Of a stretch of DNA of 64,000 nucleotides, positions 3,513 to 37,014 are shown piece after piece. The notes under the pieces were generated by a model that saw only the letters and a list, made by a program, of their open reading frames with translations, was not told the origin of the DNA and ran no database searches. The stretch comes from Nemertoderma westbladi (lineage: Eukaryota > Animalia > Xenacoelomorpha), in the NCBI GenBank assembly GCA_032718475.1, contig JAUCBJ010005675.1:1-64000 (forward strand), given 5' to 3'. Within the stretch, counting starts at the first letter, position 1; every line of letters starts with the position of its first letter. The translations under genes were made by a program, and so were the position numbers.

Positions 3513-3516
<4 letters not shown>

Positions 3517-3560: not shown

Positions 3561-3564
<4 letters not shown>

Positions 3565-5458: not shown

Positions 5459-5495
5459 TGTTGCAACATTATTGAAAATTGTTACAAAATATTAA

Positions 5496-11089: not shown

Positions 11090-12792
11090 GTGAGCAATTT
11101 GCCGCTTATTTCAAGCAGCTGTTATCTTCTCAGGAACATGCACAATCTATCACAGATGTAATTAACAACGAAATAAAGTCAATATAAATCTTTATTCCAA
11201 TTCTAGACAGCGATATAAACCCGAACGAAGTTTCAATCTGCTTAGCGAAATTTAAAGCTTCAAAATCGGCAGGAATAGATGGTCTACCTCCAGGAATCCT
11301 CAAATTATTAAGCGATGACTGGCTAATTGCAGTTACTTTATGCTTTAACGATGTTTTCACTGGTAAGGTCCCATACCCCACAGATTGGTCCACTTCCCTG
11401 ATGGTTACGATTTATAAGAAAGGAATTAAGTCACTACCAGAGAATTATCGGGGAATTTCGGTCACTCTGGCCTTGTCTAAATTGTACGACTCCGTCCTTA
11501 CTGAGCGTTTTAATTTATGGTCGAAACCGTCACAATATCAGGCAGGCGCACAGAAGGGACGAGGCTGTACTGAACAGATATTGTGTGTTCGTTTGGCAAT
11601 CGATATTGCCATCAAAACAAAGCGAGAGTTATTCATTGCCTTCATCGACTACGAGAAGGCCTATGACAAAGTTGACAGGATAGTCTTACTCAGGAGATTG
11701 AAACAGATGGGTTGTGGCAGAAGGTTTCTTATGGCTTTATCAGTATCAATGCAGGAGACTATAAATGTAATAGGCAACACAACGTTTGAGAGTACGGGTG
11801 GTGTAGGACAGGGTAAGCCTTCCAGCTGTCCACTATTTTGTACACACATAGACCCTACAATTACAAAAATGGATCGTTTAGGAAAGGACAGTTGGCTAGA
11901 TTCTCTTCATGGAACATTATTAATGGATGACACATGTGTATTGGCTACCTCCCGAGCAAAGTTAACTGATAAACTTAACATCCTCAAAGATGTATGCGAT
12001 GAAATTGGAATGACTTTACATCCTAAAAAGTCGAAATTTCTGACCTCATCCACTCTCGATAGCGACAGAATCCCCATCTTGATAGGGAACATCACAATTC
12101 CAATTGTATCCTCCTATGTCTATTTGGGATCTTTAATATCAATTCACCCCGTAGCAGTTCAAATTGATGACGAAATTAAGATGCGTATTGGTAACTACCA
12201 CAAATTCACTTCATTCCTCGGCAAAAACTGTGACGCTCCCTTTACCGTGAAGAAGTCAGTATGGCAGGCTGCTCTCCAATCTTCGCTATTATACGGATGC
12301 GAAACATGGTTATGTAATAACATCAAACCAATTGTTTCAGTGTTTTACAGAACGCTTAAACAACTACTCTCAGTTCGATTAACAACACCAAATGATCTCG
12401 TCCTTATTGAAACTGGCACTGAACATGTCAAGAGTATCATTAAGAATCGGCAGTTAAAGTTCCTGAGGTCATTGTCCTCACGGCCTGGATATAAAGACAG
12501 TTATCATAACTACATTATGAACGAAGCTACATCAGTAAACTCACCAATGGGAAAATACGCCAAAGAGCTAATAGATACGGGTCATGTCATGTCGGAACTC
12601 CAAGCTGCAAAAGATCGAACTCTTACAGCCATAACGACAAGGTGTGTGAAATATGTGGCATACAACCCAACTCAGAAACCCCATGAATTATACTCTGACC
12701 CTAATGTACCCGAGTGGGAGAGAATCTCATTTTCAAGGATCAGATTGAGTTCCCATCGGCTACCAATGGAGATACTTCGATGGTCTTGGTAA
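11090..12792 (+). mobile_element. 5'-truncated non-LTR retrotransposon, reverse transcriptase ORF (main open part 11401-12792)
   Basis: KSAGIDG, PENYRGIS, FIDYEKAYDKV, GVGQG..SCPLF, LLMDD, YVYLG, LLYGCETW and RIRLSSH.L. Confidence 0.9.
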
Positions 12793-13314
12793 ATGCTTAT
12801 GTGGTTCTACCCAATCAGATCATCACATATTCTTTGTCTGCCCATTAACGAAAGTATTCGCTTGGATTTTGACTTTCCACCACCATCGTCATCCCTATCC
12901 AGAGTATTTGATAACCTCGGAACCCGATCCGCATCAATGTGCCATAAAATTATTAAAGTATTAGAGCCCGCACAAGTATAAATTAATAACAAGGAAGGGA
13001 TTAAAATAACCGTAAATTAATAATAAATCAAATAATTAAGTATACATTTCATTAAATATAGCCAATTTCACGAACACGAACAAAAACGAGCATTATGTAC
13101 ATATATTGAATTTTTCTTTTTTTTTCCGCATTTTTGCATTACGAAGCGGCGTATAATTGGACTTAATTTTAAGTGTGTATTTTAAGTATTTTAAGTGTTA
13201 TTGCATTTAACGTATGTAGCCAAAGTATCAATGTGTGTGTCTTTATTGGTGAAGGGTTTGAATTACATGCGAGTTTCCATCTCAAAAATTATGTCAATAA
13301 ACAACTAACTAACT

Positions 13315-16300
13315 ACCCTACTGCCATATTAGAATGTAGGAGAGAGTAGGAAGGTGTACAACAGTGACATACAATAATGCAGGAAAGAGTAGGAAGGTGT
13401 ATCACCATTACTGCCATACCAGAATGTAGGAAAGAGGAGTAAGTTATACCACCATTACTGCCATACTAGATTGTAGGAAAGATTAGGAAGGTGTACCATA
13501 CTGGCATACCAGAATGTAGGAAAGAGTAGGAAGGTGTACCATACTGCCACTCCAGAATATAGTAAAGAGTAGAAAGGTGTACCATACTGCCATGCCAGAA
13601 TGTAGAAAAGAGTACGAAGGTGTACCATACTGCCATACCAGAATGTAGGAAAGATTAGGAAGGTGTACCATACTGGCATACCAGAATGTAGGAAAGAGTA
13701 GGAAGGTGTGCCATACTGCCATACCAGAATGTAGCACAGAGTAGGAAGGTGTACAAAATACTGCCACACCAAAATGTAGGAAAGAGTAGGACCGTGTACC
13801 ATACTGCCACTCCAGAATGTAGAAAAGAGTACGAAGGTATACCATAGTGCCATACCAGAATGTAGGAACGAGTAGGAAGGTCTACCATGCTGCCATACCA
13901 GAATGTAGTACAGAGTAGGAAGGTGTACCATACTTCCATACCAGAATGTAGTACAGAGTAGGAAGGTGTGCCATAATGCCATACCAGAATGTAGTACAGA
14001 GTAGGAAGGTGTACCATACTTCCATACCAGAATGTAGTACAGAGTAGGAAGGTGTACCATACTTCCATACCAGAATGTAGTACAGAGTAGGAAGGTGTAC
14101 CATAATGCCATACCAGAATGTAGTACAGAGTAGGAAGGTGTACCATACTTCCATACCAGAATGTAGTACAGAGTAGGAAGGTGTACCATACTTCCATACC
14201 AGAATGTAGTACAGAGTAGGAAGGTGTACCATACTTCCCTACCAGAATGTAGCACAGAGTAGGAAGGTGTACCATACTTCCATACCAGAATGTTGTACAG
14301 AGTAGGAAGGTGTACCATACTTCCATACCAGAATGTAGTACAGAGTAGGAAGGTGTACAATACTGCCATACCAGAATGTAGTAAAGAGTAGGAAAGTGTA
14401 CCATACTGAAATACCAGAATGTAGTAAAGAGTATGAAAGTGTACCCTACTGCCATATTAGAATGTAGCAAAAGAGTAGGAAGGTGTACCATACTGCTATA
14501 CCAGAATTTAGGAAAGAGTAGGAAGGTGTATCACCATTACTGCCATACAAGAATGTAGGAAAGAGTAAGAATGTATACCATACTGAAATACCAGACTGTA
14601 GTAAAGAGTATGAAAGTGTATCCTACTGCCATATTAGAATGTAGGAAAGAGTAGGAAGCTGTACCATACTGCTATACCAGAATTTAGGAAAGAGTAGGAA
14701 GGTGTATCACCATTACTGCCATACCAGAATGTAGGGAAGAGTAGTAAGTTATACCACCATTACTGCCATACCAGATTCTAGGAAAGATTAGGAAGGTGTA
14801 CAACAGTGACATACAAGAATGCAGGAAAGAGTAGGAAGGTATACCATACTGCTATACCAGAATTTAGGAAAGAGTAGGAAGGTGTATCACCATTACTGTC
14901 ATACCAGAATGTAGGAAAGAGTAGTAAGTTATACCACCATTACTGCCATACCAGATTGTAGGAAAGATTAGGAAGGTGTACCATACTGGCATACCAGAAC
15001 GTAGGAAAGAGTAGGAAGGTGTACCATACTGCCATACCAGAATGTAGCACAGAGTAGGAAGGTGTACAAAATACTGTTACACCAGAATGTAGGAAAGAGT
15101 AGGAAGGTGTACCATACTTCCATAGCAGAATGTAGTAGAGAGTAGGAAGGTGTACCATACTTCCATACCAGAATGTAGCACAGAGTAGGAAGGTGTACCA
15201 TACTTCCATACCAGAATGTAGCACAGAGTAGGAAGGTGTACCATACTTCCATACCAGAATGTAGCACAGAGTAGGAAGGTGTACCATACTGCCATACCAG
15301 AATGTTGTACAGAGTAGGAAGGTGTACCATACTTCCATACCAGAATGTAGCACAGAGTAGGAAGGTGTACCATACTTCCATACCAGAATGTAGTACAGAG
15401 TAGGAAGGTGTACCATACTTCCATACCAGAATGTAGTAAAGAGTAGGAAGGTGTACCATACTGCCATACCAGAATGTAGTACAGAGTAGGAAGGTGTACC
15501 ATACTGCCATACCAGAATGTTGTACAGAGTATGAAGGTGTACCATACTTCCATACCAGAATGTAGCACAGAGTAGGAAGGTGTACCATACTTCCCTACCA
15601 GAATGTAGCACAGAGTAGGAAGGTGTACCATACTTCCATACCAGAATGTAGTACAGAGTAGGAAGGTGTACCATACTGCCATACCAGAATGTTGTACAGA
15701 GTATGAAGGTGTACCATACTTCCATACCAGAATGTAGTACAGAGTAGGAAGGTGTACAATACTGCCATACCAGAATGTTGTACAGAGTAGGAAGGTGTAC
15801 CATACTTCCATACCAGAATGTAGCACAGAGTAGGAAGGTGTACCATACTGCCATACCAGAATGTTGTACAGAGTATGAAGGTGTACCATACTTCCATACC
15901 AGAATGTAGTACAGAGTAGGAAGGTGTACCATACTTCCATACCAGAATGTAGTACAGAGTAGGAAGGTGTACCATACTTCCATACCAGAATGTAGTAAAG
16001 AGTAGGAAGGTGTACCATACTGCCATACCAGAATGTAGTACAGAGTAGGAAGGTGTACCATACTTCCATACCAGAATGTTGTACAGAGTAGGAAGATGTA
16101 CCATACTTCCATACCAGAATGTAGTACAGAGTAGGAAGGTGTACCATACTTCCATACCACAATGTAGTACAGAGTAGGAAGGTGTACAATACTGCCATAC
16201 CAGAATGTAGCACAGAGTAGGAAGGTGCACCACCATTATTGCCATACCAGAATGTAGTACAGAGTAGGAGTAGGTGTACCATAATGCCATACCAGAATGT

Positions 16301-17234
16301 AGGAAAGAGTAGGAAGGTGTGCCATAATGCCATACCAGAATGTAGGAAAGAGTAGGAAGGTGTACTATACTGCCATACCAGAATGTAGCACAGAGTAGGA
16401 AGGTGCACCACCATTATTGCCATACCAGAATGTAGTACAGAGTAGGAGTAGGTGTACCATAATGCCATACCAGAATGTAGGAAAGAGTAGGAAGGTGTAC
16501 CATACTGCCATACCAGAACGTAGTACAGAGTAGGAGTAGGTGTACTATAATGCCATACCAGAATGTAGGAAAGAGTAGGAAGGTGTACTATACTGCCATA
16601 CCAGAATGTAGGAAAGAGTAGGAAGGTGTACCATACTTCCCTACCAGAATGTAGGAAAGAGTAGGAAGGTGTACCATACTTCCCCACCAGAATGTAGGAA
16701 AGAGTAGGAAGGTGTACCATACTGCCATACCAGAATGTAGTACATAGTAGGAGTAGGTGTACCATAATGCCATACCGGAATGTAGGAAAGAGTAGGAAGG
16801 TGTACTATACTGCCATACCAGAATGTAGGAAAGAGTAGGAAGGTGTACCATACTTCCCTACCAGAATGTAGGAAAGAGTAGGAAGGTGTACCATACTTCC
16901 CTACCAGAATGTAGGAAAGAGTAGGAAGGTGTACCATACTGCCATACCAGAACGTAGTACAGAGTAGGAGTAGGTGTACCATACTTCCATACCAGAATGT
17001 AGCACAGAGTAGGAAGGTGTACCATACTTCCCTACCAGAATGTAGGAAAGAGTAGGAAGGTGTACCATACTGCCATACCAGAACGTAGTACAGAGTAGGA
17101 GTAGGTGTACCATACTTCCATACCAGAATGTAGCACAGAGTAGGAAGGTGTACCATACTTCCATACCAGAATGTAGTACAGAGTAGGAATGTGTACCATA
17201 CTTCCATACCAGAATGTAGTAAAGAGTAGGAAGG
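13315..17234. repeat. 43-bp tandem satellite, left part
   Basis: Unit TACCAGAATGTAGTACAGAGTAGGAAGGTGTACCATACTTCCA. The 43-aa period of the minus-strand ORFs equals three units. Confidence 0.97.
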
Positions 17235-17414
17235 TGTTCGCGGTATTTCAACTTTTCATAACGCGAGTTGAATATTTTTTGTACTTATTTAAAATGATTA
17301 TTCCGATATCACTACTGGGTGCGGGATCACGGGTTTGGGCACACTCTATGAACTGGGGGCGATTTATGGGCGAATATTGGGGCGACTTACAGGGTACGGG
17401 ACTCATTTCATGTT

Positions 17415-17450
17415 TATAAGGGCCAGGGGTGGGAGGCAAAATTAAGCAGT
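17415..17450 (+). promoter_or_regulatory. LTR core promoter: TATAA with a CAGT initiator about 30 nt downstream
   Basis: TATAA at 17415-17419 and CAGT at 17447-17450; the same arrangement is in the 3' LTR. Confidence 0.55.
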
Positions 17451-18321
17451 ATTCAGGTTCGCCTGAGTACTATTAGGCCTAGCCCACGCGCCAGGCCTAA
17501 AGGACAAGGACTGCCCTTAGCGGTCCCTGGCCAACAGCAGTTATTACGAGCCTGAAAAGGACATCGGAACGCCGGCTGCTTGTGTCAGGGATTTGCGACG
17601 GGAAACGACACGACAGACCCCTAGCCAAGCCGTACTGGTTCTCGATGATCGTTCCCTTCGGGGTTCGTGAGGGGTGGGATGGACACGCGAAAGGGTCTAC
17701 TGACTAACAGAGGAAGGGTTTGACGAGGACTGCCCTTAGCGGTCTCTGGTCAACAGCAGTTATTACGAGCCTGAAAAGGACATCGGAACGCCGGCTGCTT
17801 GTACCAGGGATTTGCGACTGGAACCGACGACAGACCCCTTAGCCAAGCCATACTGGTTCTCGATGATCGTTCCCTTCGGGGTTCGTGAGGGGTGGGACGG
17901 ACACGCGACGGGGTCGAAAGACAAAGGACTGGACTCTACTGGCCTACCGCCTGTTCGGAGTAGTTTCTCGGCCGCCGAAGCGACTACGAGCCTGAATAAG
18001 GACTCGGAAAGCCTAGGAGGTTGGGTCTCTGCGATGAACCGACGGACCCCTAGCCAAGCCGTACTGGTTCTCGATGATCGTTCCCTTCGGGGTTCGTGAG
18101 GGGTGGGATGGACACGCGAACGGGTCCATCGACACGACAGACTCCTAGCCAAGCCGTACTGGTTCTCGATGACCGATCCCTTCGGGGTTCGAGAGGGGTG
18201 GTACGGATACGCGACAGAGTCTACCGACTGGACTGACCCTTAGCCAAGCCGTGCTGGTTCTCGATGATCGATCCCTTCGGGGTTCGGGGGGGGGGGGGTG
18301 GAATGGACACACGACAGGGTC
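17448..18321 (+). ncRNA. structured RNA array in the LTR: leader hairpins, Y-type long hairpins and five X-type kink-turn/UUCG hairpins
   Basis: X units at 17615-17698, 17833-17915, 18044-18127, 18139-18222 and 18235-18321 have covarying closing stems (GACCC/GGGTC versus GACTC/GAGTC) and the core CTC-GAT-GA-YCG...CCC-TTCG-GGG..CG-WGA-GGG. Confidence 0.65.
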
Positions 18322-18906
18322 GACCGACACCGACACTACGGCATCAAGACTAGGACCGAGGGAAAATCTGGGGAACATTAGGCTAAAATCTGAGCGAACA
18401 GTGGGTAATTAAATAATTTACTGTAGGGATTTATATTGTCGTGTATTATTATTGTGAATAATTTGGTGTATATTGGTTTGGGGAAGCCCAATTTATTCTC
18501 AATCAAGGTTCAACTGTAGGGAAGTTACATTAAAGCGTATATCCAACCAATGCAGCTTTTTCTCAACCGCAATCTTGCATTTAAGAACATTCCTTCTCCA
18601 CAATCAATATCCGGTGACTGGCCGGGATTCCGTGGTCTGTAAAATTCCGCCTCCAGCATCGGCGTTTTCCCCCATGGTGTCGGGAATAACGGCAACAAAA
18701 TTGAAAATAAAATCGCGGCCAACTTCAACTGGTGGAAGTTGGGAATCCTACAATACTCTTCAAAATCTCTCCGTGCTTACCAGCACCCACTACGAGGAAA
18801 CTCTGGTATTTGAGTTAAGACAAAGTCGTGGTCTAATAAATCAACAAACTCGATCTAACCAACTCGTAGTCGGCAGATCACACATTTGGAGAGTTGTTAA
18901 CAGGGA

Positions 18907-19098
18907 ATGGAAGTATCGATCACACCCATTGATATAATCCAAGTTGAGCCAGGAATCTGGCACGTCGAGGTTGAAGTACAAGGAACGAACGTCGGACAAT
19001 TCAGGATTACCGTTCGGGTGGTCCAGGCTGAGTACAACACCTACGAGGAACTATTTTACGACATCGCACATCTAGCTATCAACGAGGCGCTACAATGA
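18907..19098 (+). CDS. small acidic upstream ORF (63 aa) whose stop overlaps the gag start (ATGA)
   Basis: ATG at 18907; TGA at 19096-19098 overlaps the ATG at 19095-19097; protein-like composition. Confidence 0.4.
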   Translation: MEVSITPIDIIQVEPGIWHVEVEVQGTNVGQFRITVRVVQAEYNTYEELFYDIAHLAINEALQ

Positions 19099-22000
19099 CA
19101 ATGAATAACGTATCCGATACCGATGAGATGGACCACCACACAGACTCGGAAGCCGACGAGGTACCAAACGTCAAGAACATGGCCCGTCGACTAGGTGCTC
19201 TCAAAGGCGGAGTCACACGAGCGTATCAACGCATAGAGAAACAACTCAAGGGAGTCGAAACCCCCCTCAACGAGATACAAACTCAGCTTCAGAATATCCG
19301 AAGTATTCTACAACGATATGAGAGAATGATACAGGCGTACCAAGAACTCATCCCCACCATCGACTAGGTAAACTACCCCAAATTGGAAGAACACGTTGCA
19401 CGCCTAGACGAATTCCGCAAACAACACCGGAGAACCCTCAGCCTCGTGAGAGGCTACGAGGAACAGTTCTACAAGAGAGCTGAAAGAACGGACGCAGAAT
19501 CAGTGCGAACCTCCAACACCAGGACCACAATTCATCGAAAGAGAACGGGGTCCTCAAGACACCAGCGCTCCAGCGCTAGGAGCGAGATATCCGGCTCAGC
19601 ACGCAGTTCTCAGGGGGGGCCGCCACTCCGAGATCAGCTACGAGAACAGAAGGCATTAGCCCTCAAAGCTCGGATGGAAGATGAGTATGTTCAACTGCGA
19701 ACCGAGCAAGATGTAATAGCCGCCGAAATGCAAAAACAAGAGGCCGAGCAAGCGGCCAAATGACAGGCCGAGCAACGTGAACAGGAAGCTGAACAACGTA
19801 AATGGGAAGCTAAACAACGTGAACAGGAAGCTGAACAACGTGGACGAGAAGCCCAACAAGAGATCGAACAACGTAAATGGGAAGCTGAAATGTGTAAACA
19901 ACACGCCGAGGCCCAAGCGATTCTCATACACAAAAAGAATGCGGATGTTGCGAAACTCGCGGAGTACGAAGCCGCACTTATAGAATGAGATATTCAACTC
20001 TACGAGGACTGGGAAAGGGATATAGATCAGAATTATGAACCAATACCGATACCAGAATTAGAAAAGTCATTAACGACACCAGCGGTGAAACCCCCGAAAC
20101 CCGAGTTCCCGCCTACCATACAGTCTACGTTATCGGCACAAGCACCGGTATTCCATCCCCCACCGGTTACGCTGAAGAATGAGGAACCTTATATCCCAGC
20201 TAACCCCACGATCCCGAGCGTCCCCAAGTACGAGCCTGAAAAGGACTCGGAACGGATCGCTACTCCCCGATCCAACAACCCGTTTACATCCACACCACAA
20301 ACCCGTAGTCGTGTCATCATTAAGATTCCACCTATCATTGATCCATCGAGTATGGGAGAGAGCGCCAATAACTATAACCCTCCAAACCACTCCAGTTCGG
20401 ACGACGTCGGCATTATCCAGGCATTGGAAAACCGCCTCTCCATGCCCAAGATGGAGATCCGCACCTTCGAAGGAGATCCCGTCGATTACCTCAGATTCAA
20501 GAAACGGTTCTTTGCGCAGATTGGATCAACGGACATAGCCGACGCACAGAAACTGGTATATTTATCACAATACCTGGGTGACAAACCACGCCGAATCATC
20601 GCTTGTTTTGAGGGAGGTTCTCATGAAGCATACTACGATGCATGGAAAACTCTAGACAAAAGATACGGAAATACCGGGACTATAATTAATAAAACTCCAG
20701 AGAAACTGATACAGGACGCGGGATCACTAGGGGACCCACAGAACATCCAGGAATTCTCAGATTCCATGAAGGATGCCTACTACACTCTGAAACCTTTAAA
20801 TAAGGAGGACCAGGTGAACAACATTCTAAACCTCCGACAGATCGCCCGGAAGTTCCCCGGATGGCTGCAAAGTAAGTGGGCCTATAAATGCGTAGATCTC
20901 CGGCGCAGACATCCAGATCAAGACCCCAGCTTCCTCGAAATGTCGGGATTCCTGGACGATATCTCCGAAGCCATGAATGACTCGATGTTCTCGAAACAGA
21001 GTCTCGCCAAGTTGGACGCAATAGAGAACAACTCCAGGAGTAAGACACCCACTCAGAGGCCGAGATTCCGCCCCCCTCCGGTGAGCACGATGGCTATCAC
21101 CATGGCCGAGGATTCCGACGATGAAGACTACGAGGAACCAACATCAGCCGAGGAATGGGCGTGTTATCTCGCGAATTGGGCACCCGAGAGGGAAGGCATC
21201 ACAAACTCCCTTCTCTGTCTCTATTGTGGAGAGAAACATAAAGTTGAATTCTGCAGGAAGTTCCAGTTTGCCGAACTCGTCCCACACTTCGAGGCGATTA
21301 TGAAACACCGAGGATGCTTCCGGTGTCTGGGAACAGGTCACTACATTCGGGATTGCGACCAAAGGTCGTGTTGTGCGGTTTGTAACGACCTACGTCATCA
21401 CACGCTCCTCCACATCCCCGCGAACTTCGACTTCACCACCCTCCCCTTTCGGATTGAAGCCAAGCGAAGAGGAGAAACAAACCATGTTTCTAAAGGAACC
21501 CGGACAACCCAACGGAGAGAAACCAACCCGTTTAAAATCGCCACTAACGCATCACCAGTGACAAATATCTCAGCCACGATTAACCTTATAAATCGCCGTT
21601 ACATGGTCTTCGCCAAAGTAATCCCAGTAAGAACTCAAGGGGTCGGTAAATCCTTGACGATGCTCGCGTTCCTTGACAACGGGTCGGACGGAACCATCAT
21701 CGACCGGGATTTCCTCGAGCAACTCGGCCTAGACTATGAGCCTTGCAAACGGCCCATACAAACTATCACCGACCACAGAGAGGTAGAATCCGGGGAAGTG
21801 CAACTCCAGATGGAAGAGGTAATGAAGGGCTATGAGACGGTTAAGCTGACCATCAAGAACGCCTTAGTACACACAGACCTCCGAGTGCGGTTCCGACAAT
21901 CAGCCGAGTACGCCCCCCTCATACAGCTGGACCGAGACGACGTGGATCTAAGGTGCCCGCCGTTGGATGTAAACCGCATCACCCTACTGATCGGACTCGA

Positions 22001-25000
22001 TACACCTGAACTACACATACCCACCGGAGACGTCGCCCGATCTATAAAGCAGGATGACGGCTTTTACGCTGAACGAACAATAATGGGATGGACACTCTGC
22101 GGCATCAAGGAAGAGACTACCGACACCTATACATACCTTCCTAAATGTCAGATTAAAGAAAATGCAACATCCGTGGGTTATTTCTCAGCTACAGACCTCG
22201 ATGAGGATTTATTTCTTGAGACCGAAAAAACCCAGCAAGAGATGACTAAATACTTTAATCTAGAGACCCAAGAGTTCGCTGAAAAGGACTAAAACCCGTC
22301 CGAGGAGGATCAATATTGTATGGATGTCCTGGACCAGGCCACGTTCAACGACGGACACTGGTGTTCACCCATGTTATGGAAGGACCCAAGCAAACCAATG
22401 GCAAACAACGCCAACATGGCCCTTAGGCGACTTAAGGGGATTCTACGCCGGCTGAATGACCAACCCGAGATAAAAGAGAAATATAACACCGTAATCAAAG
22501 GATATCTCGAGGATGGATTAGCAGAAATGGTACCACGGAATGAACTGCAAGGGGGTAAAAGAACATATTATCTTCCAACCCACTATGTGGTAGAAGCCCG
22601 GAAGGGCGGTAAAATCCGAGTAGTTAACGATGCCGCTGCTATGTACCAAGGCGAATCCCTGAACAGTCAGCTTTATACGGGGCCCAACATATATAGTACA
22701 CTTATCGGCGTATTGATCAGGTTCAGAGAAAACCGGATAGCATTCACCTGCGACATCAAAGCCATGTTTCACCAGGTTCGTACGCTACCAAGAGACTCAG
22801 ACTGTCTATGTATCCTATGGACGGATAAAACACTAACTCAACTGGAGATTAGTCAACTTACAATGAAGGATGTAGACGTAATGCGTATGATCGTCAGGAT
22901 CTTCGGAGCTAAGGACTCGCCGGTAGCATGTAGTGACATGCTGAAGAAGACGGCAACCATGTGCGAAAACGAGTTCCTTCCAACCATCATAGAAACCATC
23001 CGACGATGCTTCTACATGGACGACGGATGCGCCGGCGCAGATAATGTGGACGAGGCATATCGGCTAGCAATGGGAATGGTAGAATGTTTAAAGAAAGGAG
23101 GTTTCCCGCTCGTGAAGATCAGATCCCACGACAAAAAACTTATGGAAAAGTTTCCGGAGGACATCCGACTGGACAACAACAAAATGTATTCGGAGGATGT
23201 GGAACACCGTGTACTTGGTATTGAATGGGACATAGAATCAGACGAATTCATTTTCAAATATAAACCCCTACCCAAGCCTATGACGAAAAGGGGATGTTTG
23301 GCGATAAAAAGCGCAATCTTTGACCCACTAAATTTCATATCTCCGGTAACCTTGGCCAGAATGAACCTGATTAAGGAAATGTGGATAGAAGGACTGGGAT
23401 GGGATGAAGAACTCCCCCCACACCTCAGCGTCAAATGGAGAAAATGGACGGACCAGCTCGAACACCTACATCTTATGCGGATCCCTCGACCGTTCTTCCT
23501 CGATAAACTACCCACCGATATCTTCCAGCTCCATACCTTCTCGGATGCTTCGAATACCGGAATCGGCGTAGTCACCTTCTTACGAAGACTAAGCAACGAT
23601 GGAAACGGCGATACGAGCTTTTTATTTTCTAAAGCTAAGACAGTATCCGGGGAATTCGTAGCAACGATTCCAAGACTCGAGCTACAGGCTGCAGTTTGGG
23701 CAGTGAGACAGAACCGCATGGTCATGCGGAACCTACGAATCCCCATCGAATCTCAACACTTCTGGGTTGATTCGAGCATCGTTCTCTACTATCTCCACTC
23801 TCCATCCCGACGTCACACTACGTTTGTAGCGAACCGAGCCGCGGAGATAAAACAGTGTACCGGCCGAGAACAGTGGCACCACGTAAACGGGAAAGAAAAT
23901 CCAGCGAACTTATCAAGCCGAGGCGCCACCCCAAAACAACTCGGTAAAAGTAAACTCTGGCTTACAGGCCCGGAATTCCTACAGCAGCCACAATTAACAT
24001 GGAGTACCCGATTCGACCCCGAACTCGATAGTGGAAAATACTCCGAGGACGACAAAGAGATCCGTAAAGTCCATAGAAGCAACGCAGTGGAAATTTATAG
24101 TTGTCTGACTGAGCCTGCAAAGGACTCGGGCAGGCACTATAACGTTGCGACGATCATTCAACCAGCGGCGTCTTTACATCTGTTAATCGAGCGAACTTCA
24201 TCAATGAGACAGGCTCATCCACCACGTTATAACCCTTCGCAACTTCCTACGGTGGAAAGACAACAAGCCGATAGTTCAACGGAGTATACAAGAACTCATT
24301 ATCGTGGAGAAGTGTATCGTTGGATATGTCCAGAGAGAAAGTTTCCCCGATGAGTGGGAACAACTCAGTGCGGGCAAGACCTTGAAACCGGACAGCCCAG
24401 TCTACCAACTGAGAACAATGATGGGAGAGGATGGACTGATCCGACTGAATACCCGGATGGCAAACGCCCCGGTCGAATATGAGGTTAAATACCCGGCGCT
24501 TCTGCCCGGAACTTCGACACTAGCCAAGCTATTAATTCAACAATGTCACGAGGAAAACCATCACGCAGGACAGAACTGGATTATAGCTAATATAAGACAA
24601 AGATATTGGATCACACACATCCAGCCACTGATCCGGAAAGTGTTGAAACGTTGCTTTACCTGCAGAAGATATCTAGCACCACCACTCACACAAAAGATGG
24701 CCGACTTACCAGCCACCCGTCTACAGCCCGATTCCCCACCGTTCTACGTCACCGGAGTGGACTGTTTTGGACCGTTTACGGTCATCGAACGACGATCCAA
24801 CATCAAATGCTGGGGAGCCATTTTCACCTGCCTTAGGTCTAGAGCAATCTACCTAGACATTGTGGTAAACCTTACGCAACACGCATTCATCAACGCTCTG
24901 CGTAGGTTCGTGGCGAACAATGGGACATGTCGTCACATGTACTCCGATAATGGTACAAACTTTGTGGGAGGAGAAAGAGAACTTAGAGAGGCGATCGAGG

Positions 25001-25718
25001 AATGGTTTACCGATAACACCGCATCCCAAGTCTGGAAGGAACACCAGATACAGTGGCATTTCCAGACACCATTAGCACCCCATACGAGCGGGGTATGGGA
25101 GAAACTGATCGACTTAGTAAAACGATCCATGGCGTCGCACTAGGAGACACCCGGGTAACCCATGACACCCTCCGCACAACATCCTGCGAGATCATGGCTA
25201 CCCTGAACAACCGGCCCATTGTCCTTATCTGCGACGACCCCACAGACCTGGAGCCCCTCACTCCTAACCACCTACTGGGGAGACCCAAAACTCATGTTCT
25301 CCCAGAGACAATGTTTCCGGATCCCAACGATATCGCGAGACATACAAATTGGAAGAAGGCCCAAGCGTTGGCAGCGCATTGGTGGAGAATCTGGGCCCAG
25401 GAGTACCTCATAACCCTCCGGACCAGGAGGAAGTGGAACAACACCTACAGGAATGTCGAAGTTGGCGACATGGTGCTGGTCAAAGAAGACCTCAAAGACC
25501 ACGTCCACTGGCCTGTGGCGCGAGTCGTGGCAATACAACCGAGCAAAGACGGACTTGCGAGGACTGTGACGATACGAACGGCAAAGGGCCACTACCAACG
25601 CCCTATCCAGAGGCTGTGCCTTCTTGAAGGCAATGACAGCGGTGACTCTACGAGAGGTGATAAGTTCCCTACTCAAGATCCTGCTGCAGACATTGGTGAC
25701 AATGCTAAAACCGTGTAA
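19095..25718 (+). pseudogene. BEL/Pao gag-pol polyprotein (Gag with 3 Zn knuckles, aspartic protease, RT, RNase H, integrase), broken by stops and frameshifts
   Basis: CLYCGEKHKVEFC / CFRCLGTGHYIRDC / CAVCNDLRHHTLLH; AFLDNGS; CDIKAMFHQV and FYMDD; HTFSDAS and IPRLELQAA; HHAG..CFTC, GVDCFGP, SDNGTNF and GVWE; WPVARV and RPIQRL. Confidence 0.95.
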
Positions 25719-25996
25719 ACCCTTCTCATCCTGTTGACAAACTCTTTAAAACGTGATTTATCGACAATGAAAAATGGACCCCCCTTAAACCAACTGTAAC
25801 CACGCAATGGTATTTGTGTTTCCTCGTGTGTTATGTGGAGTCCAGCATCACCCTGCAGATGTTTCGACTGACGCAGGGTCGTTTATGTATTGTTTACCCT
25901 GATTTTGGTCATCGGGACCAACGATATTGGATTATTGGAAATGGTAAAGATTTGAAGTGGAATTCATTGTATCCATTGTAGTATGTTATGTTGTCC

Positions 25997-26408
25997 GTTG
26001 CGTGCGCAGTTCGGGGCGTAGGCGGTGTAACTAGTCCAGCTGTAGATCCCGGATTGCCGCGCAACACCCCCTCTATCCCGTTATTCTGGTGGGTCCATGG
26101 TGCATCCACATGACTTCGACGATAGAGGGTTTTATGTTTCTCAGTCGCGTTATTCTGGTGGGACCGTTGCGTGGATTTTGGGGCGTAGGCGGTGTAACTA
26201 GTCCAGCTGTAGATCCCAGAATGTTGCATAACCCCATCCCACATGACTTCGTCGACTGAGCTTTATGTTGTTGGGAGTGTTATTCTGGTGGGTCCCTGGT
26301 GCATTCCACGTGACTTCACTCCCAGCGTCTTCATTGTCCGTTACGTGCGCAGTTTGGAGCGTAGGCGGTGTAACTAGCCCAGCTGTAGATCCCAGATTGC
26401 CGCGTAAC
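25997..26408 (+). ncRNA. modular structured RNA element between pol and the accessory ORF (A1-B1-B2[A2]-B3-A3)
   Basis: Three copies each of two conserved cores, set in closing stems that differ in sequence but remain complementary. Confidence 0.7.
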
Positions 26409-26930
26409 ACCCCTTCCACAACAAAGATTTCCCAAAGAAGATGATTGAATGTAGTTGGAAAAGATGAAAAGAATCAGACAACTCTACTATAAACCGAATG
26501 GTGACGCGTATGATGATGAAAATGAAATGATGCGCACCCTGGTGCTGCGCTTATAACAAATGATGATAGCCGGGGGGCTATAACCCCAATGATGATGTGG
26601 AAATAAATGAAAATGTGAAATAAATGAAATGTGATGAAATAATAATGAGAAATGAAAAAAGACAAAAAAAAGGTATAAAAAAGTCTAAAGAAAAGAATTG
26701 GAAAAAAGAAGAGGACATAAAAAGTCATAAAAACTGGTTGGATATTAATGTATAGCTATAGTAACTGTAAATGCTGAATGTATTAGTAATAAGATGATAG
26801 ATGCCTATATAGCAATGTTATTTAATAAACTGAATTAAAAATAAACTGAATTATTCTGCAATCACTATAGTTTCAGACTTTCTGGACTTATAATTAACTG
26901 ATATAATTTGCAACGGACATAATTGTAAAT

Positions 26931-29536
26931 ATGGACCCAAATCGCCAAATTATCGGCGAATTACGTAATACGATAGATCTACTGGAATATCCACAACCCG
27001 GATCCCCTAACTTTGATACAGATTGGAACACCCTAATAAATGAGAATGTGCGATACGTCAAATTCTGCGGGCGAGAGGGACCGGATTCCCGGAATCTACG
27101 AGCCCTCCGGTTGGCCGATGCTAGTACGAGACTGAAAAGAACTCGGAACGCAAAGGCTACCGGAGGGGATGAGTTGTCGTATTGGGAAACGTTCCGGCAA
27201 AGCGTCTACAGATCCCGATGTTTGATATACGACAACGAGGGAAATGCGACGCCCACCTCGAAAGCGATGACGTTGGCGCGATGTCAAAGTTTCGTCGACG
27301 ACAAGAGTACGTACCTCACACACTGGGGAAACCTGTCGGAGTGTACGGCGACGCTACGAGAGGAACGTATATCGATCATCCAGAATCGCGATGACTACCG
27401 GGAAAAGTACGGAGCGAAAGAATACGGTCGATCCTTGGTCGTCGTCCTCGGAACCCTGGACGGTTTGGTATTGGTGTGTCGAATATTTCCAACACCCAGA
27501 CAGGAAGTGCAGGCAGCCGGAGCGATCTGGTTACTACCTCCGGAAATCCAAAAGATCCTCTTCGACTTCGACGTCATTAAAATCGGGTCGGATATAAAGG
27601 CGGACGTCCGGAACGACTACGCGAACGCTCCTTCAGGAAGAGACCGACGAGACGACCTCAACGCCCTTAGCCATTGCGTCGACACTCAAACGCTATTAGC
27701 CTGGTTACGATTCGCCGAGTTCATGCGAGGATTCCAAGAGGTGAGACCGACGAAATCCGGGATTGGCTACCTCGCTGTGCTAAACGGCGGCATCGACTTC
27801 AAACCTCAGAAACTCCGGGATTATAATAAAATATATGGTGGATACCCGGGATTAGAAATAAAGAGCGAGCGAGAGGGTCGATGGAAGGACGTGGAGAGAA
27901 AGTGGACGATACACCAAAAGTGGGAGAATCCGGAACGACGGAACTACATCTACGTTGTTATGGAATCATACACCGTCGCTAAGTTTATCTGTAAAACCCT
28001 CGATAACCTCATTATGGCGGTTCCTCTTTCCTTCGTCGACTACGACTGGAACGAGGTTGTAAACCACGCGTTCAAAGCGGTCGAGAACATTACACCGGGA
28101 GAGATGAAAACGCTCGCCGTCATCGATTCCTGGGACGAGAGCGGACCTTACGACATCCCTACGATTACCGATCTTCTCGGTGCGGAGGAGCCTCTGATTT
28201 CTTCGGAAGGGGAAGAACTATGGCTGCAGGAGGGCATTCTACTCTCCACCCCGAAGCGACAACTCGAGCCGGAGGCCGCTTACCAACCGGCAGCCAAACG
28301 GGTTGCCTCCGCCGAACCTGCGACGGAAGCGGGCGTTTCCTCACCTCTTGGCTCCGGTAGCCCTGCGAGGGAGTTAATCACCACCTCCGCGTTGAGCAAC
28401 TTCGGCGATATATGCCAAAGGTTATCCCCATATCATATCCTTTCCCGGGTGGCGAAGACTGGTCTTCAGAGATTCCGAGTACCAGCAACCAACGGTCACG
28501 CTCAGCGATACTGGTTGAAAAGGGTCCCAGCGCTGCGCCGACTCCCGACGATCTCCTCGGAATCCCTCGGTCGAAAACCCCGGCACCTCTTCGCCGACCA
28601 GCGGTGGCTACTACACCCTCCGTTCCTCAGGATCCTATGCGACTAACCCGTTGGTACGCCGAGCAAACCGAATGGATCCACCGCCAGAAACGGTCGTCCG
28701 AGTTGAGACCGGCAGGACATAAAGAAGGTTATCGGAGCGAGGACCTACTACGCAAAAGCCCAGCCTTCCGCGGGCTACCAGCCACCGCGAATATTCAGAA
28801 GAGTGACCGACGACTCGAGTATTACGTCGGCGTCCCGATTCCGATATTCCCCGGTCGAGAGATGCAGTTGGAGGTGTGCGGTAACTGCGGTTCGGAGCAG
28901 TGCCCACGCGGTAAAAGAAATCGGGTTACCGATTCGTGCCTCCAGCTCCTCGGGATACTTTATTGCCCATACTGCGCGACATCGGGCCACGACGTTACCG
29001 TCTGTCCGATCCTATATAACCTCTGCACTACGTGCAGTTTCCGTGGACATTCCGCTAGCCCCCGCTGCTATATCAAATGTCCTACCAAAGACGTTACCGC
29101 TATGGGAAATATGGTCATGTTTGAAACATACGCAAACAGCCACATAAGGACCAAAACGCGGAGAAACGCTGGGAATATCGCGCAGGAGATGGCGTGCGGG
29201 TATTTTTCCTTCCCGGAGCGCCTACATACGACGGCAAAGCTACCTTTCCATTATGTGGATCTGCTGCTGAGCGCCGGATTATTCGGCCCATTTGAAGTCC
29301 TTAGACGCTTAAACTCGTATAAAGAGGAGTTCGGTGACGGAGAGTGGTTCCTTGAGGCTCGCAACTCCGAGTTGGAACGACAAACCGATATGATCCCGTT
29401 GCCATCGAAAGGAAGAGCCGCCAGGAGACAAGCCGAAGCGTTGCTCACGATGGATGTTGACGCTCCTCTACCAGCTCTAGCGATCGACGAGAGTCGACGG
29501 GCGAAGAGGAGAAAGGCGTATCAGAGAAAGAAATAG
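26931..29536 (+). CDS. accessory ORF in the env position: DnaQ-like (WRN/EXD/Egalitarian-type) 3'-5' exonuclease fold, P/S/A linker, Cys/His zinc knuckles and basic tail; one -1 frame change near 28360-28410
   Basis: VVLGTLDGLVLV..LPPEIQKILFDFDVIKIGSDIKADV..CVDTQ..SGIGYLA..W...NYIYVVMESY; then CGNC..., CPYCATSGHDVTVC, CTTCSFRGHSASPRC and RRAKRRKAYQRKK. Confidence 0.65.
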
Positions 29537-29714
29537 TGGACTGGGATATTCCAGGAACATTTATTGAACACTTATTTTTATACATATATATATATAAACT
29601 CTAGGCCAAATTAATCAAGACTATGCAATATTAAAATTTTGGGGTTTTTTATATGGGAATGACCTACGCAAACTCAATCTACCGATAGACCTCACGAAGG
29701 TCATTGGGGGGGAC

Positions 29715-30557
29715 TGTTCGCGGTATTTCAACTTTTCATAACGCGAGTTGAATATTTTTTGTACTTATTTAAAATGATTATTCCGATATCACTACTGGGT
29801 GCGGGACCACGGGTTTGGGCACACTCTATGAACTGGGGGCGATTTATGGGCGAATATTGGGGCGACTTACAGGGTACGGGACTCATTTCATGTTTATAAG
29901 GGCCAGGGGTGGGAGGCAAAATTAAGCAGTATTCAGGTTCGCCTGAGTACTATTAGGCCTAGCCCACGCGCCAGGCCTAAAGGACAAGGACTGCCCTTAG
30001 CGGTCCCTGGCCAACAGCAGTTATTACGAGCCTGAAAGGGACATCGGAACGCCGGCTGCTTGTGTCAGGGATTTGCGACGGGAAACGACACGACAGACCC
30101 CTAGCCAAGCCGTACTGGTTCTCGATGATCGTTCCCTTCGGGGTTCGTGAGGGGTGGGACGGACACGCGACAGGGTCGACCGACACCGACACTACGGCAT
30201 CAAGACTAGGACCGAGGGAAAATCTGGGGAACATTAGTTAGGCTAAAATCTGAGCGAACAGTGGGTAATTAAATAATTTACTGTAGGGATTTATATTGTC
30301 GTGTATTATTATTGTGAATAATTTGGTGTATATTGGTTTGGGGAAGCCCAATTTATTCTCAATCAAGGTTCAACTGTAGGGAAGTTACATTAAAGCGTAT
30401 ATCCAACCAATGCAGCTTTTTCTCAACCGCAATCTTGCATTTAAGAACATTCCTTCTCCACAATCAATATCCGGTGACTGGCCGGGATTCCGTGGTCTGT
30501 AAAATTCCGCCTCCAGCATCGGCGTTTTCCCCCATGGTGTCGGGAATAACGGCAACA
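29715..30557 (+). repeat. 3' LTR (843 bp) with a single Y and a single X hairpin module
   Basis: Direct repeat of the 5' LTR, preceded by the PPT and followed by the TSD. Confidence 0.95.
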
Positions 30558-31010
30558 GAAGGTGTACCATACTTCCATACCAGAATGTAGTACAGAGTAG
30601 GAAGGTGTACCATACTTCCATACCAGAATGTAGTACAGAGTAGGAAGGTGTACCATACTTCCATACCAGAATGTAGCACAGAGTAGGAAGGTGTACCATA
30701 CTTCCATACCAGAATGTTGTACAGAGTAGGAAGGTGTACCATACTTCCATACCAGAATGTTGTACAGAGTAGGAAGGTGTACTATACTGCCATACCAGAA
30801 TGTAGCAGAGTAGGAAGGTGTACCATACTTCCCTAGCAGAATGTAGTACAGAGTAGGAAGGTGTACTATACTGCCATACCAGAATGTAGGAAAGAGTAGG
30901 AAGGTGTACCATACTTCCATACCAGAATGTAGCACAGAGTAGGAAGGTGTACCATACTTCCCTACCAGAATGTAGCACAGAGTAGGAAGGTGTACCATAC
31001 TCCCATACTT
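30558..31010. repeat. 43-bp satellite, right part (a last remnant follows at ~37139-37162)
   Basis: The same unit resumes in register after the BEL TSD. Confidence 0.95.
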
Positions 31011-31865: not shown

Positions 31866-34800
31866 TTAGTACAGTCCAATACGGGGAACTACAGTGTTAA
31901 GTGGGGGGCGATGCAAGTTAATTAGAACCGCTTCAGAATGAATCCTACGCTCGTGGTTAGTAAACCTTTTAGAACATGTAATATTGAGCGCACCGATCCC
32001 ACAAATAGCAAAGTGTTGCAGTAGCAAGACTTCAGGACCCGATAAATCGACTCCTAGCCCCTTGCGAGCTGCGTCAATTATGGCACTACGGTAACCTCGA
32101 AGGCGCTCATGTAAACGCTGTTCTGTCTTACCGAAATACCACAAGTGTGGATGCAGATTACATTTGAAAAATTAATCACATTAAATGATTTGCAGTTAAA
32201 TCTCCCATGGATGGGGTCACCCCATGGTGTCCGGCGCTGGTCTAGAACGGCCGAGCATTTGCAACGAGGCCCATTGCAAGAGTGATTACCAAGAGGCAGA
32301 GTTGGCTTGGACTTGGTGATCAACAGTTTACCTAACGATGGGAGGTTACGCGGGACCGTTTGGACACTAATACCTAGCGAACGCAAGTCAGCATTATATT
32401 TGCGGATAACGGGCTCTAGGACAGGCAGGAACTGTGGGGTCGTAGGGAGATATATAGAGGTGTATTTTGGCCCACTCGATGTAGTCTTATTTAAATTTTG
32501 TTGGAGTGCTGATGGACCATCCCCCCTCCGTTGGTAAAGACGGCTGCTGTGTGATCGGCACTGGACCAAGAGGTGTTGGGGTTTGACGCATGGAGGGAGA
32601 GGAGGAAATCCAGCGGATAGCCTCGGTTCTCACACAACTGGAGGTACTGGTGTTTATAACATGTGAAAAAATGGTGTGAGTCAGTTAAACGGCGAATACG
32701 CAAAATTTCAGATTTCACCACTGCCCGTAACGTAGGTTTATGGTGGAAACTAGAGTACATAATAGGTAGTTTATTAGCCATGGTTTTCTAAATAAACGAG
32801 TTCTAAGGGTGTAGGCATTAGTAGCAATCGTTAGATCGAGGTAGTCGACACTAGCATGGGAGTAATGCATTGTAAATTGGATGGCATCAATATTATATAA
32901 ATTCCTACAAGCTGAGTTAAATTCAGTCTTCATGAACTCGAAATGCTCATCAGTTAGTCGCTCATCGTAAATGGCGAAACTATCATCCACCAGAGTACGA
33001 AAGAATGAAGGAGTCCGTAGCGAAATAGTTATCGCCCTCTTGAGTACTTTGTACGAACTGATTATAGAATAATCACTACTGTGGTGACCGCCCATAGGTG
33101 CTCCTGCGTTTTGCAGGTAGTACATTATTCTGATAAAAGAAAAAGTTGTGGTATAGAAGAAACCGTAAAATTGCTGCGAGTTGAGTTGGTGTAAAAATAG
33201 AACGTTCAGATAACGTAGGATCCTCAGAAAGTGCATGCATGGTAGCCTCAATACCCAATTCATGAGGGATGGCGGTAAACATTTCGATTACATCAATAGT
33301 AACTAAAGTAAAATGGGAATTATTAGTTGTTGTAGGCATGGTTTGTTTGAGATCCAAAGAGCTTTTTAGATAGTTATCGGCAGTAGTAACTAAAGGGTGC
33401 AGGTAGTGGTGCATCATTTTGGATAAGGGTTTAAAAAATGCGTCCGTATTAGATATAATAGGTCTACCTTTTGGGATTAGGGCACCATTAGGGTGGGTTA
33501 CCCATTCGTCACGTGGTTTATGGTCTTTAAGAATTATAAAGATATGGCCGGTAGTGAAGGTATTAGGGAAGTGGTGATGGCGAAGCCGTTGGTTCCCAAT
33601 AGCAAGGGAATCTAATAACGATCGGCATTCAACACGAAATCGTGCAGTAGGGTCTTTGCGTAGTTTCACATATGTTTCTTATCACCCAAAATTCGAAGGA
33701 TCTCATATTCCTTAGCAGATTTATCCAATAAAATAATATTACCAGTTTTGTCACCTTTAAGGAATGCTAAATTCTTATCGGTTAATAATAATCAATAAAT
33801 TGTTATTCCCTGTGCTGTTCTCGAACGGTTGCGCGAAGAAGGTGTGTCAGGAATGAGAACTCCAGCACGGCGGTCGAGTTGCAAAGGAAAATCTGGGTGA
33901 AAATTGCAGTCTACCCGGGGTCGGGTCTGTGGAGCCGGCTGTGGGTTCGCTCTGTTCAGCTCCTGTAATACGTCCACAAGGGGTGTTGGTTCATAAGCAT
34001 CTGTATTCGCGGCTGGGAATAGTTTTTTGCGGGCCGTTGTTGGTTGCAAACGAGTATGAGTTAGTTGCGTGGCAGTACTAACCTTGGGAGTAGCAGAAGT
34101 GTTTGATGCTACAGGGACTTCGGTGGCACGATGCAGTTGGCCAGATGTTTGAGGGGGCGTTGCTGATTGTTCATAGATAGGTAGATTAACCAATTTTCGA
34201 AATCTAGTTCTAATTTTCGTTGCTGCTGAGGCTACGTCAATCTTAGCCTCTAGAACATCAGAGGGCGCTGTACCATGGTATGGAATGAAGGTAAACCCCA
34301 ATCCAAGCAAGTTTCTTTGGTCCTGGTTGAGGAGTATTTTAGAAAGGTTATTTACTGGTGCCTGCAGAATGGGAAATGGATTCGTAGATTGAGGGTGGGA
34401 GGGGTCCAAATCACGGAATCGTTGGTTGGACGGAACTCGTCTATTTGCTGTATCTAAATAGCGACTCATAACTTCCCGTCCCATCTCAAAAGAAAACTTG
34501 TATTCCAGACGTTGGCATGCAACCTCCAACTCACGCTCACCAACCAATGGTAGGTAGCCAGGCGTTTAGATACAGCGTAGCGATATAGTTGCCGCTGTTG
34601 ATAGCATCCTGTTCGAGACGGGAAAGGCATTTGCTAAACGCAATCTTTAATCTCCTGAGCGATTTATACTTTAGGTTGAGCTCTTGCCGAAAGATTTTCG
34701 TTAAAAGTCCCTTATATAACGTTGGATACAATTGAATAATTTGTTGCAGTCGTGCTGCCATAAATTGCGGCGGGAAACCAGCACGGCGGCAATCTTCAAA

Positions 34801-35504: not shown

Positions 35505-37014
35505 CATGGAATACTAAATATACACGGAACCAGATAGAAAAAACAAAACACTCAGCTTATGCTAAATCTTTACAGCGATTGTACAGAGAGTGCTCTGAGA
35601 TATTATATTGACAGAAACAGTCCGACAGCAAATTTTGTGCGATTGATGAGGTTATTTTTGGCATTTGTGAACACCAAAACTATGAATCCGAAGACATCCA
35701 CTATGTATACTGAGACACACCACAAAGACCAGATTGAGAGACGAAGTTTCTTGAAATACTTTTGGCGATTGGGTGGAGGCATGGCGAGATTCGGGAAAGC
35801 CAGGTCTATCACCTCAAACCTTTAACGCCCTCCTATTGACTGTGCGCAATACAGAGAAAGTGTTTAAACTCGTGTTTGAGGAACTGGGATACAGCTTGTT
35901 AACACTCATGTCCTTGGAGACGATGCATTGGAGTTACATTACTCTAAATATAGACAAATGTCTGGTGGCCGGTTTCTAATTGCTCTTCGTGACGCACTAA
36001 ACTCCAATAAAATTTTATCAATACGACTAATCATAGATGAAGACCTCGAAGTATCCGACTTTCTGTTGAAGAAAGATTACCACAATGAAGCCGCGTTGTT
36101 ATTCGATGAAATGTCTGAAATTGTGGATGAAGATGAGTTTCGTTGTCTAACTGTCAATGAAGAATCTCTAGATATTGTTGAATACATCTCAGGATGGATT
36201 GTGAAAACAGTAGGGGTCAACTGCCTACACTGTAATTTAAACGGTACAGATGACATCATTAGCGATTCTAAGAGAAGTGGGTCTACATCTAATGAGTCAT
36301 CTCGCTACTTTCTACATGATATAAATCGCCGTGGTTTAACCATTCCACATCAAAATCTTGTCAACTTCGTTTGTAATTGCCTCGGTAACCTAGAACTAGC
36401 ATATAAATTCCTGCAAAAAAATATTAAAGATGACAAATTCATATCAGCCGAAGTTTTCTTTCAGTACCTACTGTACAAATGCTTCCAGTAGATTCTTTGC
36501 ATACAACATCAATAATTTGCGATATTCACTCCAGTTATTCCTCGAAATTTTTACGAAAAATTATTAACGTGTTTCTGAAGGCACAGAAAAATCACTTGGC
36601 TGAGCTAATAGCTGAGAAAGAAAGCTACAAGACTGGGTTGGACGGTTTTAAGGCGCCTCAGCGAAACAAGGGAAGGAAATTGATCTGAAGCGCCGGTTGG
36701 AGGAATAAGAAAAATAATGATGGGTTACAGAGCAGATCAGGCAACTTATTGATGAAACGGAAGCTATAGTGTATGTATATCGCTTTAACCTTTGAACAAA
36801 TTTGGAAGCAATATTTACTGTATTTTCACTCATCGTAGTTGAAATAAAGGCAAAAAATGAAAAATGTCTGTTGCCATGGCAACGAGATCGATGACCACCA
36901 ATTTTTTTTTCAAAATTTTTATTGATGCATCGAGTACAATAGATTAAAGCAATAAAAAGAATGACTCGTGAAATCGGACATCTATCTGGTTCCGTGTATA
37001 TTTAGTATTCCATG
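35505..37014 (+). mobile_element. internally deleted P-superfamily DNA transposon inserted in the Penelope pseudo-LTR
   Basis: Perfect 34-bp TIRs CATGGAATACTAAATATACACGGAACCAGATAGA; 7-bp TSD GTAATAC, with the empty site visible at ~31659; C-terminal transposase remnants DALELHYSKYRQMSGG, YISGWIVK and NRRGLTIP. Confidence 0.9.

Follow-up and report, generated by a model that had tools for sequence, protein, structure and literature searches.

A BEL/Pao retrotransposon of Nemertoderma westbladi that combines a putative exonuclease-fold accessory gene with arrays of predicted RNA hairpin modules

Positions 17235–30557 of a 64,000-nt stretch of the genome of the xenacoelomorph Nemertoderma westbladi (GenBank assembly GCA_032718475.1, contig JAUCBJ010005675.1, positions 1 to 64,000 of the forward strand; this whole stretch is referred to below as the window) are occupied by a long terminal repeat (LTR) retrotransposon of the BEL/Pao type. 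The element combines a large accessory gene, located downstream of pol and predicted to encode an exonuclease-fold protein with zinc knuckles, with two arrays of predicted modular RNA hairpins, one type of which recurs within the coding regions. Together, these features could form a control system made by the element itself, in which a catalytically altered exonuclease with knuckles would bind stem-loops located in U3, after pol and in three coding regions and would mark the self-primed genomic RNA so that it is exported, packaged or shielded from silencing by small RNAs. This complete scheme is, in our estimate, somewhat unlikely to hold in full; if true, it would represent a Rev/Rex-type circuit outside the retroviruses, assembled from unrelated parts.

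General features of the element

17230–17234, plus strand: left target-site duplication GAAGG, inside a 43-bp satellite
17235–18697, plus strand: 5' LTR, long form, 1463 bp
19095–25718, plus strand: BEL/Pao gag-pol, broken, with stops at 19365, 19761, 19986 and 22290 and frame shifts within 24208–24353 and 25017–25143
29706–29713, plus strand: polypurine tract (a G run ahead of the 3' LTR)
29715–30557, plus strand: 3' LTR, short form, 843 bp, with one Y and one X hairpin module, 620 bp of the array being gone
30558–30562, plus strand: right target-site duplication GAAGG

The element is inserted into the satellite, about 100 units of which are found at 13314–17237 and 30558–31008, and the 5-bp GAAGG duplication is in register with the satellite unit. 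Both LTRs run from TG to CA and differ at 3 of 839 aligned bases, by a 4-bp indel and by a 620-bp block that is absent from the 3' LTR. The LTR alignment, the GAAGG duplication and the G-run polypurine tract confirm the bounded element of the original prediction, a reading of the same DNA from its letters alone. The 3' LTR departs from that description in being without those 620 bp, which belong to the hairpin array.

The order of Pfam domains in gag-pol (DUF1759, CCHC, protease, reverse transcriptase, Pao peptidase/RNase H, integrase and DUF5641) is that of BEL/Pao elements, and the TG...CA LTRs, the polypurine tract and the 5-bp target duplication are all in agreement with this assignment. 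The best 120 of the 175 relatives of pol carry PF05380, and, with these relatives only 28–41% identical, the family is isolated. The present copy is a defective member of a multi-copy BEL/Pao family: its gag-pol contains four in-frame stops and two frame shifts, and its accessory gene contains one frame break. Near-identical LTRs around a broken interior point to a recent move in trans or to homogenisation of the LTRs. The 4-bp duplication that separates the two LTRs is shared by a minority of other copies, so the two LTRs may derive from different templates.

Hairpin modules of the two arrays

17522–18322, plus strand: array 1, in the order Y1 X1 Y2 X2 Y3 X3 X4 X5, probably in U3
25990–26410, plus strand: array 2, in the order A1 B1 B2 (A2 nested) B3 A3, with fixed loop sequences and differing outer stems

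Module X is a long stem-loop with a cUUCGg tip and invariant internal loops, and module Y is a bulged-A hairpin with a GNRA tip and a variable outer stem. Array 2 is composed of A and B modules, three of each, and A2 lies within the stem of B2; the A loop contains palindromic hexamers in two of its three copies. Fixed loops on exchangeable stems are an anatomy typical of protein-binding RNA and suggest that the modules behave as RNA structures.

When the arms of the modules were swapped between copies, the native pairing ranked first among 120 combinations for the five distinct Y modules, among 120 for the five X modules, and among 6 each for A and B; these ranks are to be read with core limits that were set after the folds were seen and with module copies that are not independent, and a local inverted duplication would pass the test too. 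The arms of the B modules are only 36–39% alike, yet every native pair falls within the best 0.2% of background pairs, with an average of –13.3 kcal/mol for native pairs versus –3.3 kcal/mol for swapped ones. Compared with shuffled sequences, array 2 folds with a z-score of –3.5, and the plus strand is the more stable one in 14 of the 15 modules, in part because it is G-rich. Neither array stood out in a sliding 80-nt folding scan. Of the covarying modules that had been predicted, the preference for native arms was borne out in all four types, but covariation at individual base pairs is thin.

The likeness between array 1 and array 2 is no greater than that between shuffled sequences. A relationship was rejected for the two arrays, as it was for X with any of Y, A and B. 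The earlier description of a second modular array, unrelated to the first and situated just upstream of the extra open reading frame (ORF), was accordingly upheld. Rfam contained no family match for the arrays, the only two matches being at chance level, and assignment of the modules to a ribozyme or an Rfam family was likewise rejected. Just upstream of array 1, both LTRs contain a perfect strong hairpin with a UUCG tip (17450–17480, z about –4.5).

Y hairpins within coding regions

20214–20270, plus strand: Y hairpin in gag, with an AGUA/GAA-type internal loop
24093–24148, plus strand: Y hairpin in pol, with a long stem, z –6.3
27110–27165, plus strand: Y hairpin in the accessory gene, in a codon phase unlike that of the gag and pol copies

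The Y core, GAG-CCU-GNRA-AGG-A-CUC or a close variant of it, lies at 20229 in gag, 24108 in pol and 27125 in the accessory gene, and its 17-nt pattern has three matches in coding sequence as opposed to none in 100 shuffles. Each of these copies sits on its own outer stem, that of gag being the weakest, and they occupy two codon phases; since the third copy is in the other phase, protein sequence does not account for the Y core. A covariance model for Y, searched against the 64 kb, recovers exactly its seven input copies, all of them on the plus strand and within the element. In prokaryote genomes, the 17-nt core has 40 matches, which is about the chance level by our own estimate.

The AGUA/GAA consensus, which we take to be that of the sarcin-ricin (bulged-G) motif, is found in the gag and accessory copies, is altered in the LTR copies and is absent from the pol copy. 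Contigs from other family members that come loose at the Y copy of the accessory gene continue into the flanks of LTR Y modules, and some LTRs bear the same Y variant as the accessory gene. A variant common to the two locations points to exchange, or to shared selection, between LTR and coding copies.

Accessory gene and its protein

26420–26930, plus strand: A-rich spacer of 511 nt (44% A) containing 28 ATGs; two candidate splice acceptors end at 26870 and 26876
26931–29536, plus strand: accessory gene, with a predicted DEDDy-type exonuclease fold at about residues 95–370, a low-complexity linker, three Cys/His knuckles and a small C-terminal domain

The accessory ORF, whose first codon at 26931 has a favourable start context, is split between two overlapping frames, 26931–28646 and 28361–29536, with the break lying within 28361–28646. 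Among 1.84 billion representative sequences, the first 420 residues have a single match (E 2e-6), P0121, which is a singleton on a 9.4-kb contig. P0121 aligns to both pieces in the same domain order (E 5e-16 and 3e-11), so the two frames represent one gene that is broken in this copy, and the existence of two separate accessory genes was rejected. In a contig of another copy that crosses the frame junction, the net length difference is not divisible by three; the indels shown for other copies (12 of 51) are all located outside the reading frames.

The Atlas features of P0121 are PF01612 plus CCHC (0.86), with all 10 of the 10 best named matches in agreement and a lead cluster that is mostly euglenozoan; P0121 thus has the look of a DEDDy 3'-5' exonuclease, with three CCHC knuckles. 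Read by eye, its three Exo motifs are DxE, D and YxxxE, the Exo I residues being D62 and E64; its Exo II region matches eight bacterial members of PF01612, and a small profile gave an E-value of 8e-5 in a two-sequence search. In the window protein, D225 aligns with the Exo II aspartate of the PF01612 family, and Exo I has three possible registers, near residues 101–103, 134–137 and 155–158, none of which fixes a canonical motif. Exo III reads Y-x3-E in both proteins, compared with Y-x3-D in the family (again by eye and outside the scored alignments). The knuckles of the window copy comprise one exact C-x2-C-x4-H-x4-C, one with x5 and one degenerate form, and those of P0121 match nucleocapsid structures (E 1e-4). 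Sequence comparison with PDB matched knuckles only, with no exonuclease domain among the matches; AlphaFold models had predicted local distance difference test (pLDDT) values of 31.3 and 31.8, too low for use.

On sequence grounds, the accessory protein is predicted to consist of a DEDDy 3'-5' exonuclease fold plus three CCHC knuckles, an architecture that is plausibly fit for RNA binding; the exonuclease fold is possibly catalytically inactive. The exonuclease-fold/Zn-knuckle protein of the original prediction can thus be recognized directly by its knuckles in the window copy, but by its fold only through P0121. The large non-Env ORF expected after pol is present, although broken here by a frame shift. 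No Env family match was found in it, and no transmembrane-type stretch except one hydrophobic 19-mer, which maps to a predicted core strand pair; an env gene was rejected on both grounds. A word-index search revealed no relative of the first accessory piece among 7995 candidates and none of the knuckle region among 94, and no related loci were found in metagenome, viral or prokaryote collections, with plasmids yielding one chance match.

Because the 28 ATGs of the upstream spacer would block scanning, the accessory gene would need a messenger RNA of its own, which is likely to arise by splicing or from an internal start.

Transcript start and priming

18492–18503, plus strand: candidate self-primer segment, complementary at 11 of 12 bases to the sequence that starts 2 nt past the LTR
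18529–18534, plus strand: candidate poly(A) signal ATTAAA, with a second one at 18408
18700–18711, plus strand: putative primer-binding position, which pairs with 18492–18503

The sequence following the 5' LTR, which was inspected with no tRNA-library search, contains no tRNA-type primer-binding site with a TGG start. The pairing of 11 of 12 bases between this sequence and the LTR segment, at the 2-nt offset usual for such sites, was reached by 6 of 400 LTR shuffles and by none of 300 other 12-mers, and other copies differ at the mismatch toward fuller pairing. In some other copies, the LTR is directly followed by a short inverted-repeat insertion (18698–18720), at the primer-binding position. 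In the Tf1 and Tj1 elements, the primer is a 5' segment of the element's own RNA (PMC4600332). The present element resembles them in that sequence past the 5' LTR pairs with an LTR segment in place of a tRNA; Tf1 and Tj1 are gypsy-type elements (PMC4600332), whereas here the element is BEL/Pao and the 11/12 pairing is known from sequence alone.

The self-priming-like site and the ATTAAA at 18529 point to a short R region, which would leave array 1 in U3 and at the 3' end of the RNA. We consider the location of array 1 in U3 probable and a transcription start near 18480 likely. A position of array 1 at the 5' end of the transcript, as originally predicted, is not established, U3 being the likelier location in view of these two signals. 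The comparison with Tat/TAR (trans-activation response element) that went with it is probably wrong; a better fit is provided by the 3' end of the RNA, where the Rex, Rec and Rem response elements (RxRE, RcRE and RmRE) are found.

Other copies of the family

Sequence of this family is contained in five sequencing runs of one organism. Four runs were analysed, as short contigs only; run depth gives no copy number, and the runs may represent a population other than that of the window. Between the end of pol and the polypurine tract, each of the 30 bins has coverage in every one of the four runs. The joints shown for this region (15 of 17) are all of low depth, and no well-supported joint skips array 2 or the accessory gene, which indicates that the two travel together in other copies. 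The co-occurrence of the ORF with the RNA arrays, earlier proposed as a check, holds for the copies of this family within these runs. The linker at 17912–18059, found in the long LTR only, has about the same depth as the constant 3' part of the LTR, and each of the four runs covers the long form. It is thus the long LTR that is the norm in this family; the short 3' LTR was rejected as such because the linker is covered as deeply as the constant part. One contig, with a depth of 3.9, skips most of the LTR array.

Possible function of the hairpins and alternative explanations

The accessory protein may bind some of the modules and so mark the RNA for export, packaging or protection, a proposal that we regard as doubtful, although as the most likely of those considered here. 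The RNA would carry repeated stem-loop docking sites, some of which would be recognized by an RNA-binding adaptor encoded by the extra gene. The DEDDy fold, possibly inactive, would read the shape of stem-loops as the exonuclease domain of Drosophila Egalitarian does, and the CCHC knuckles would add RNA contacts, as in Trypanosoma brucei RNase D (TbRND) or nucleocapsid. Array 2 and the Y copies of gag and pol would lie only on the unspliced genome, which they would mark in the way the Rev response element (RRE) does, and array 1 would be a 3'-end element of all transcripts, with their start near 18480.

A number of observations weigh against this proposal. Co-location in one family is the sole link between the accessory protein and the hairpins, and the presence of four unrelated module types would suggest several ligands. 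The exonuclease assignment rests on P0121, for which the Atlas score is below 0.9 and the Pfam E-value is 0.2; a Pfam search of the window accessory protein found no exonuclease family, and profile-profile comparison gave a probability of 4–8%, in the Exo II region alone. The signal of purifying selection on the gene is mixed: in 40 of 662 rows, 11 of the 23 differences that fall in the first piece are synonymous, and 1 of the 6 that fall in the second. With respect to the RNA, changes on both sides were seen in 2 of 26 X pairs (six X copies), the stability of X1, X2, X3 and X5 does not exceed that of shuffles, and the z-score of the LTR array as a whole is +1.0. Within six modules, there are 22 differences to other copies, 11 of them at paired sites, where the pair is kept in 8 cases, each time by a G-U wobble, and lost in 3; in addition, a G-rich plus strand is favoured in folding. 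Finally, a TATA-like box at 17415, with a start near 17445, would give array 1 a 5'-end position in the transcript as well; such a start would also place two poly(A) signals one kilobase into the transcript.

Gag and host export factors are both serious competitors for the role of hairpin ligand. An unlikely alternative is that the hairpins are sites for Gag (nucleocapsid), i.e., dispersed packaging and dimerisation signals, with the accessory protein serving another purpose such as trimming the primer or small RNAs. Gag has CCHC knuckles of its own, Y copies occur every ~3–4 kb along the genome (20229, 24108, 27125 and 30025), the palindromic hexamers in two of the three A loops would be in line with such a role, and GNRA-tipped bulged hairpins are common packaging signals. 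However, packaging signals are usually located near the 5' end of the RNA, whereas most modules here would lie in U3 and after pol, and the presence of both rare features in one family would be left unexplained. The arrays might also recruit host export or localisation factors, in the manner of the constitutive transport element (CTE) with NXF1 or of Egalitarian signals, which would make the accessory gene an unrelated cargo; we consider this quite unlikely. It has a precedent in simple retroviruses, which export unspliced RNA via the host by using a structured cis element or, in Rous sarcoma virus (RSV), direct repeats (PMC3856414), and array 2 is positioned where it would be confined to unspliced RNA. 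On the other hand, Rfam gave no match, and recruitment of this kind would not require the LTR and the accessory gene to have Y copies in common.

It is very unlikely, in our view, that the arrays are DNA-level enhancer or insulator repeats of U3, or neutral repeats with inverted arms generated by template switching, and that the folds are by-products. Tandem repeats are common in U3 and in internal untranslated regions of LTR elements, the folding z-scores of X are weak, local inverted duplication also satisfies the arm-swap test, and the 3' LTR has lost most of its array. The element Burro has likewise been drawn with tandem repeats (PMC6431247). What such an origin would not lead one to expect are the RNA-specific tips (cUUCGg and GNRA) and plus-strand G-U pairs, the nesting of A in the stem of B, the same orientation of all copies, and the recurrence of the same Y core on new stems in three coding regions and two phases. 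Should Gag or a host factor, instead of the accessory protein, bind the hairpins, Y would still be unusual as a single RNA module that is retained both in the LTR and in three coding regions.

Comparison to known systems

An extra gene of the exonuclease type has precedents: DEDDy third ORFs, their function untested, have been described in the gypsy-type elements Juno and Vesta of bdelloid rotifers (Rodriguez et al. 2017, PMC5408684), and the DEDDy exonuclease is cited as a known accessory domain (PMC6338049, PMC6431247). ORF3 of Juno and Vesta resembles the accessory gene described here: both follow pol as a third ORF that is not env, and both have a predicted fold like that of RNase D, a D-to-E motif change (by eye in the present element), a Cys/His motif (in some of the Juno/Vesta cases) and probably a message of their own. 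Unlike those gypsy-type elements, the present one belongs to BEL/Pao, and its protein has three CCHC knuckles, a C-terminal domain and a non-canonical first motif. RNA hairpin arrays, which are present here, are not mentioned in the accessible part of the Juno/Vesta description (PMC5408684). The job of the DEDDy third ORF has been open since that 2017 report, partly since no RNA target was in view; with four short, defined candidate RNA targets beside a DEDDy gene, direct tests of binding and trimming become possible.

Among the full-text papers listed, which do not include most subscription papers, none showed such a gene in a BEL/Pao element, or an accessory protein together with hairpin arrays in any LTR retrotransposon. 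The BEL/Pao element Cer7 of C. elegans is said to contain an extra exonuclease-like ORF; if so, the gene described here would be less novel.

The Rev/RRE system (PMC3856414) and those of Rex, Rec and Rem also combine an accessory gene with a structured cis RNA, which is either confined to unspliced RNA or located at the 3' end. Those proteins are small arginine-rich adaptors, in contrast to the large predicted nuclease-fold protein and the four types of modular repeats seen here. If the accessory protein binds the hairpins, retrotransposons would have independently reached the accessory-protein-plus-response-element design of complex retroviruses. TbRND (PMC7797062) resembles the accessory protein in having a DEDD exonuclease domain followed by RNA-binding CCHC knuckles, and the nearest Atlas cluster of P0121 has the same domain pair. 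TbRND differs in being a cellular, active trimming enzyme with four knuckles, and no sequence match to its exonuclease domain was found. In Drosophila Egalitarian (bioRxiv 10.1101/2025.08.03.668247), an exonuclease domain recognizes a stem-loop; Egalitarian, unlike the protein described here, is a host dynein adaptor, and the likeness is limited to the possible fold.

Genomic surroundings

Several other mobile elements were recognized in the window by eye. On the minus strand, 1942–6131 contains an integrase-like, a packaging-ATPase-like and two more ORFs, with the look of a Polinton/Maverick fragment; 9972–12792 contains a long interspersed nuclear element (LINE) reverse transcriptase ORF; and 31866–34565 contains a broken Penelope-like element with reverse transcriptase and GIY-YIG-like pieces. 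A fragment of a P-element/THAP-type transposase is located on the plus strand at 35880–36491. Also on the plus strand, an exon with an engrailed-homology-like motif (41983–42804, likewise by eye) is probably the first exon of a homeobox gene. Tandem arrays of 24 bp and 23 bp with long open frames are found at 55660–57527 and 60373–62165, respectively.

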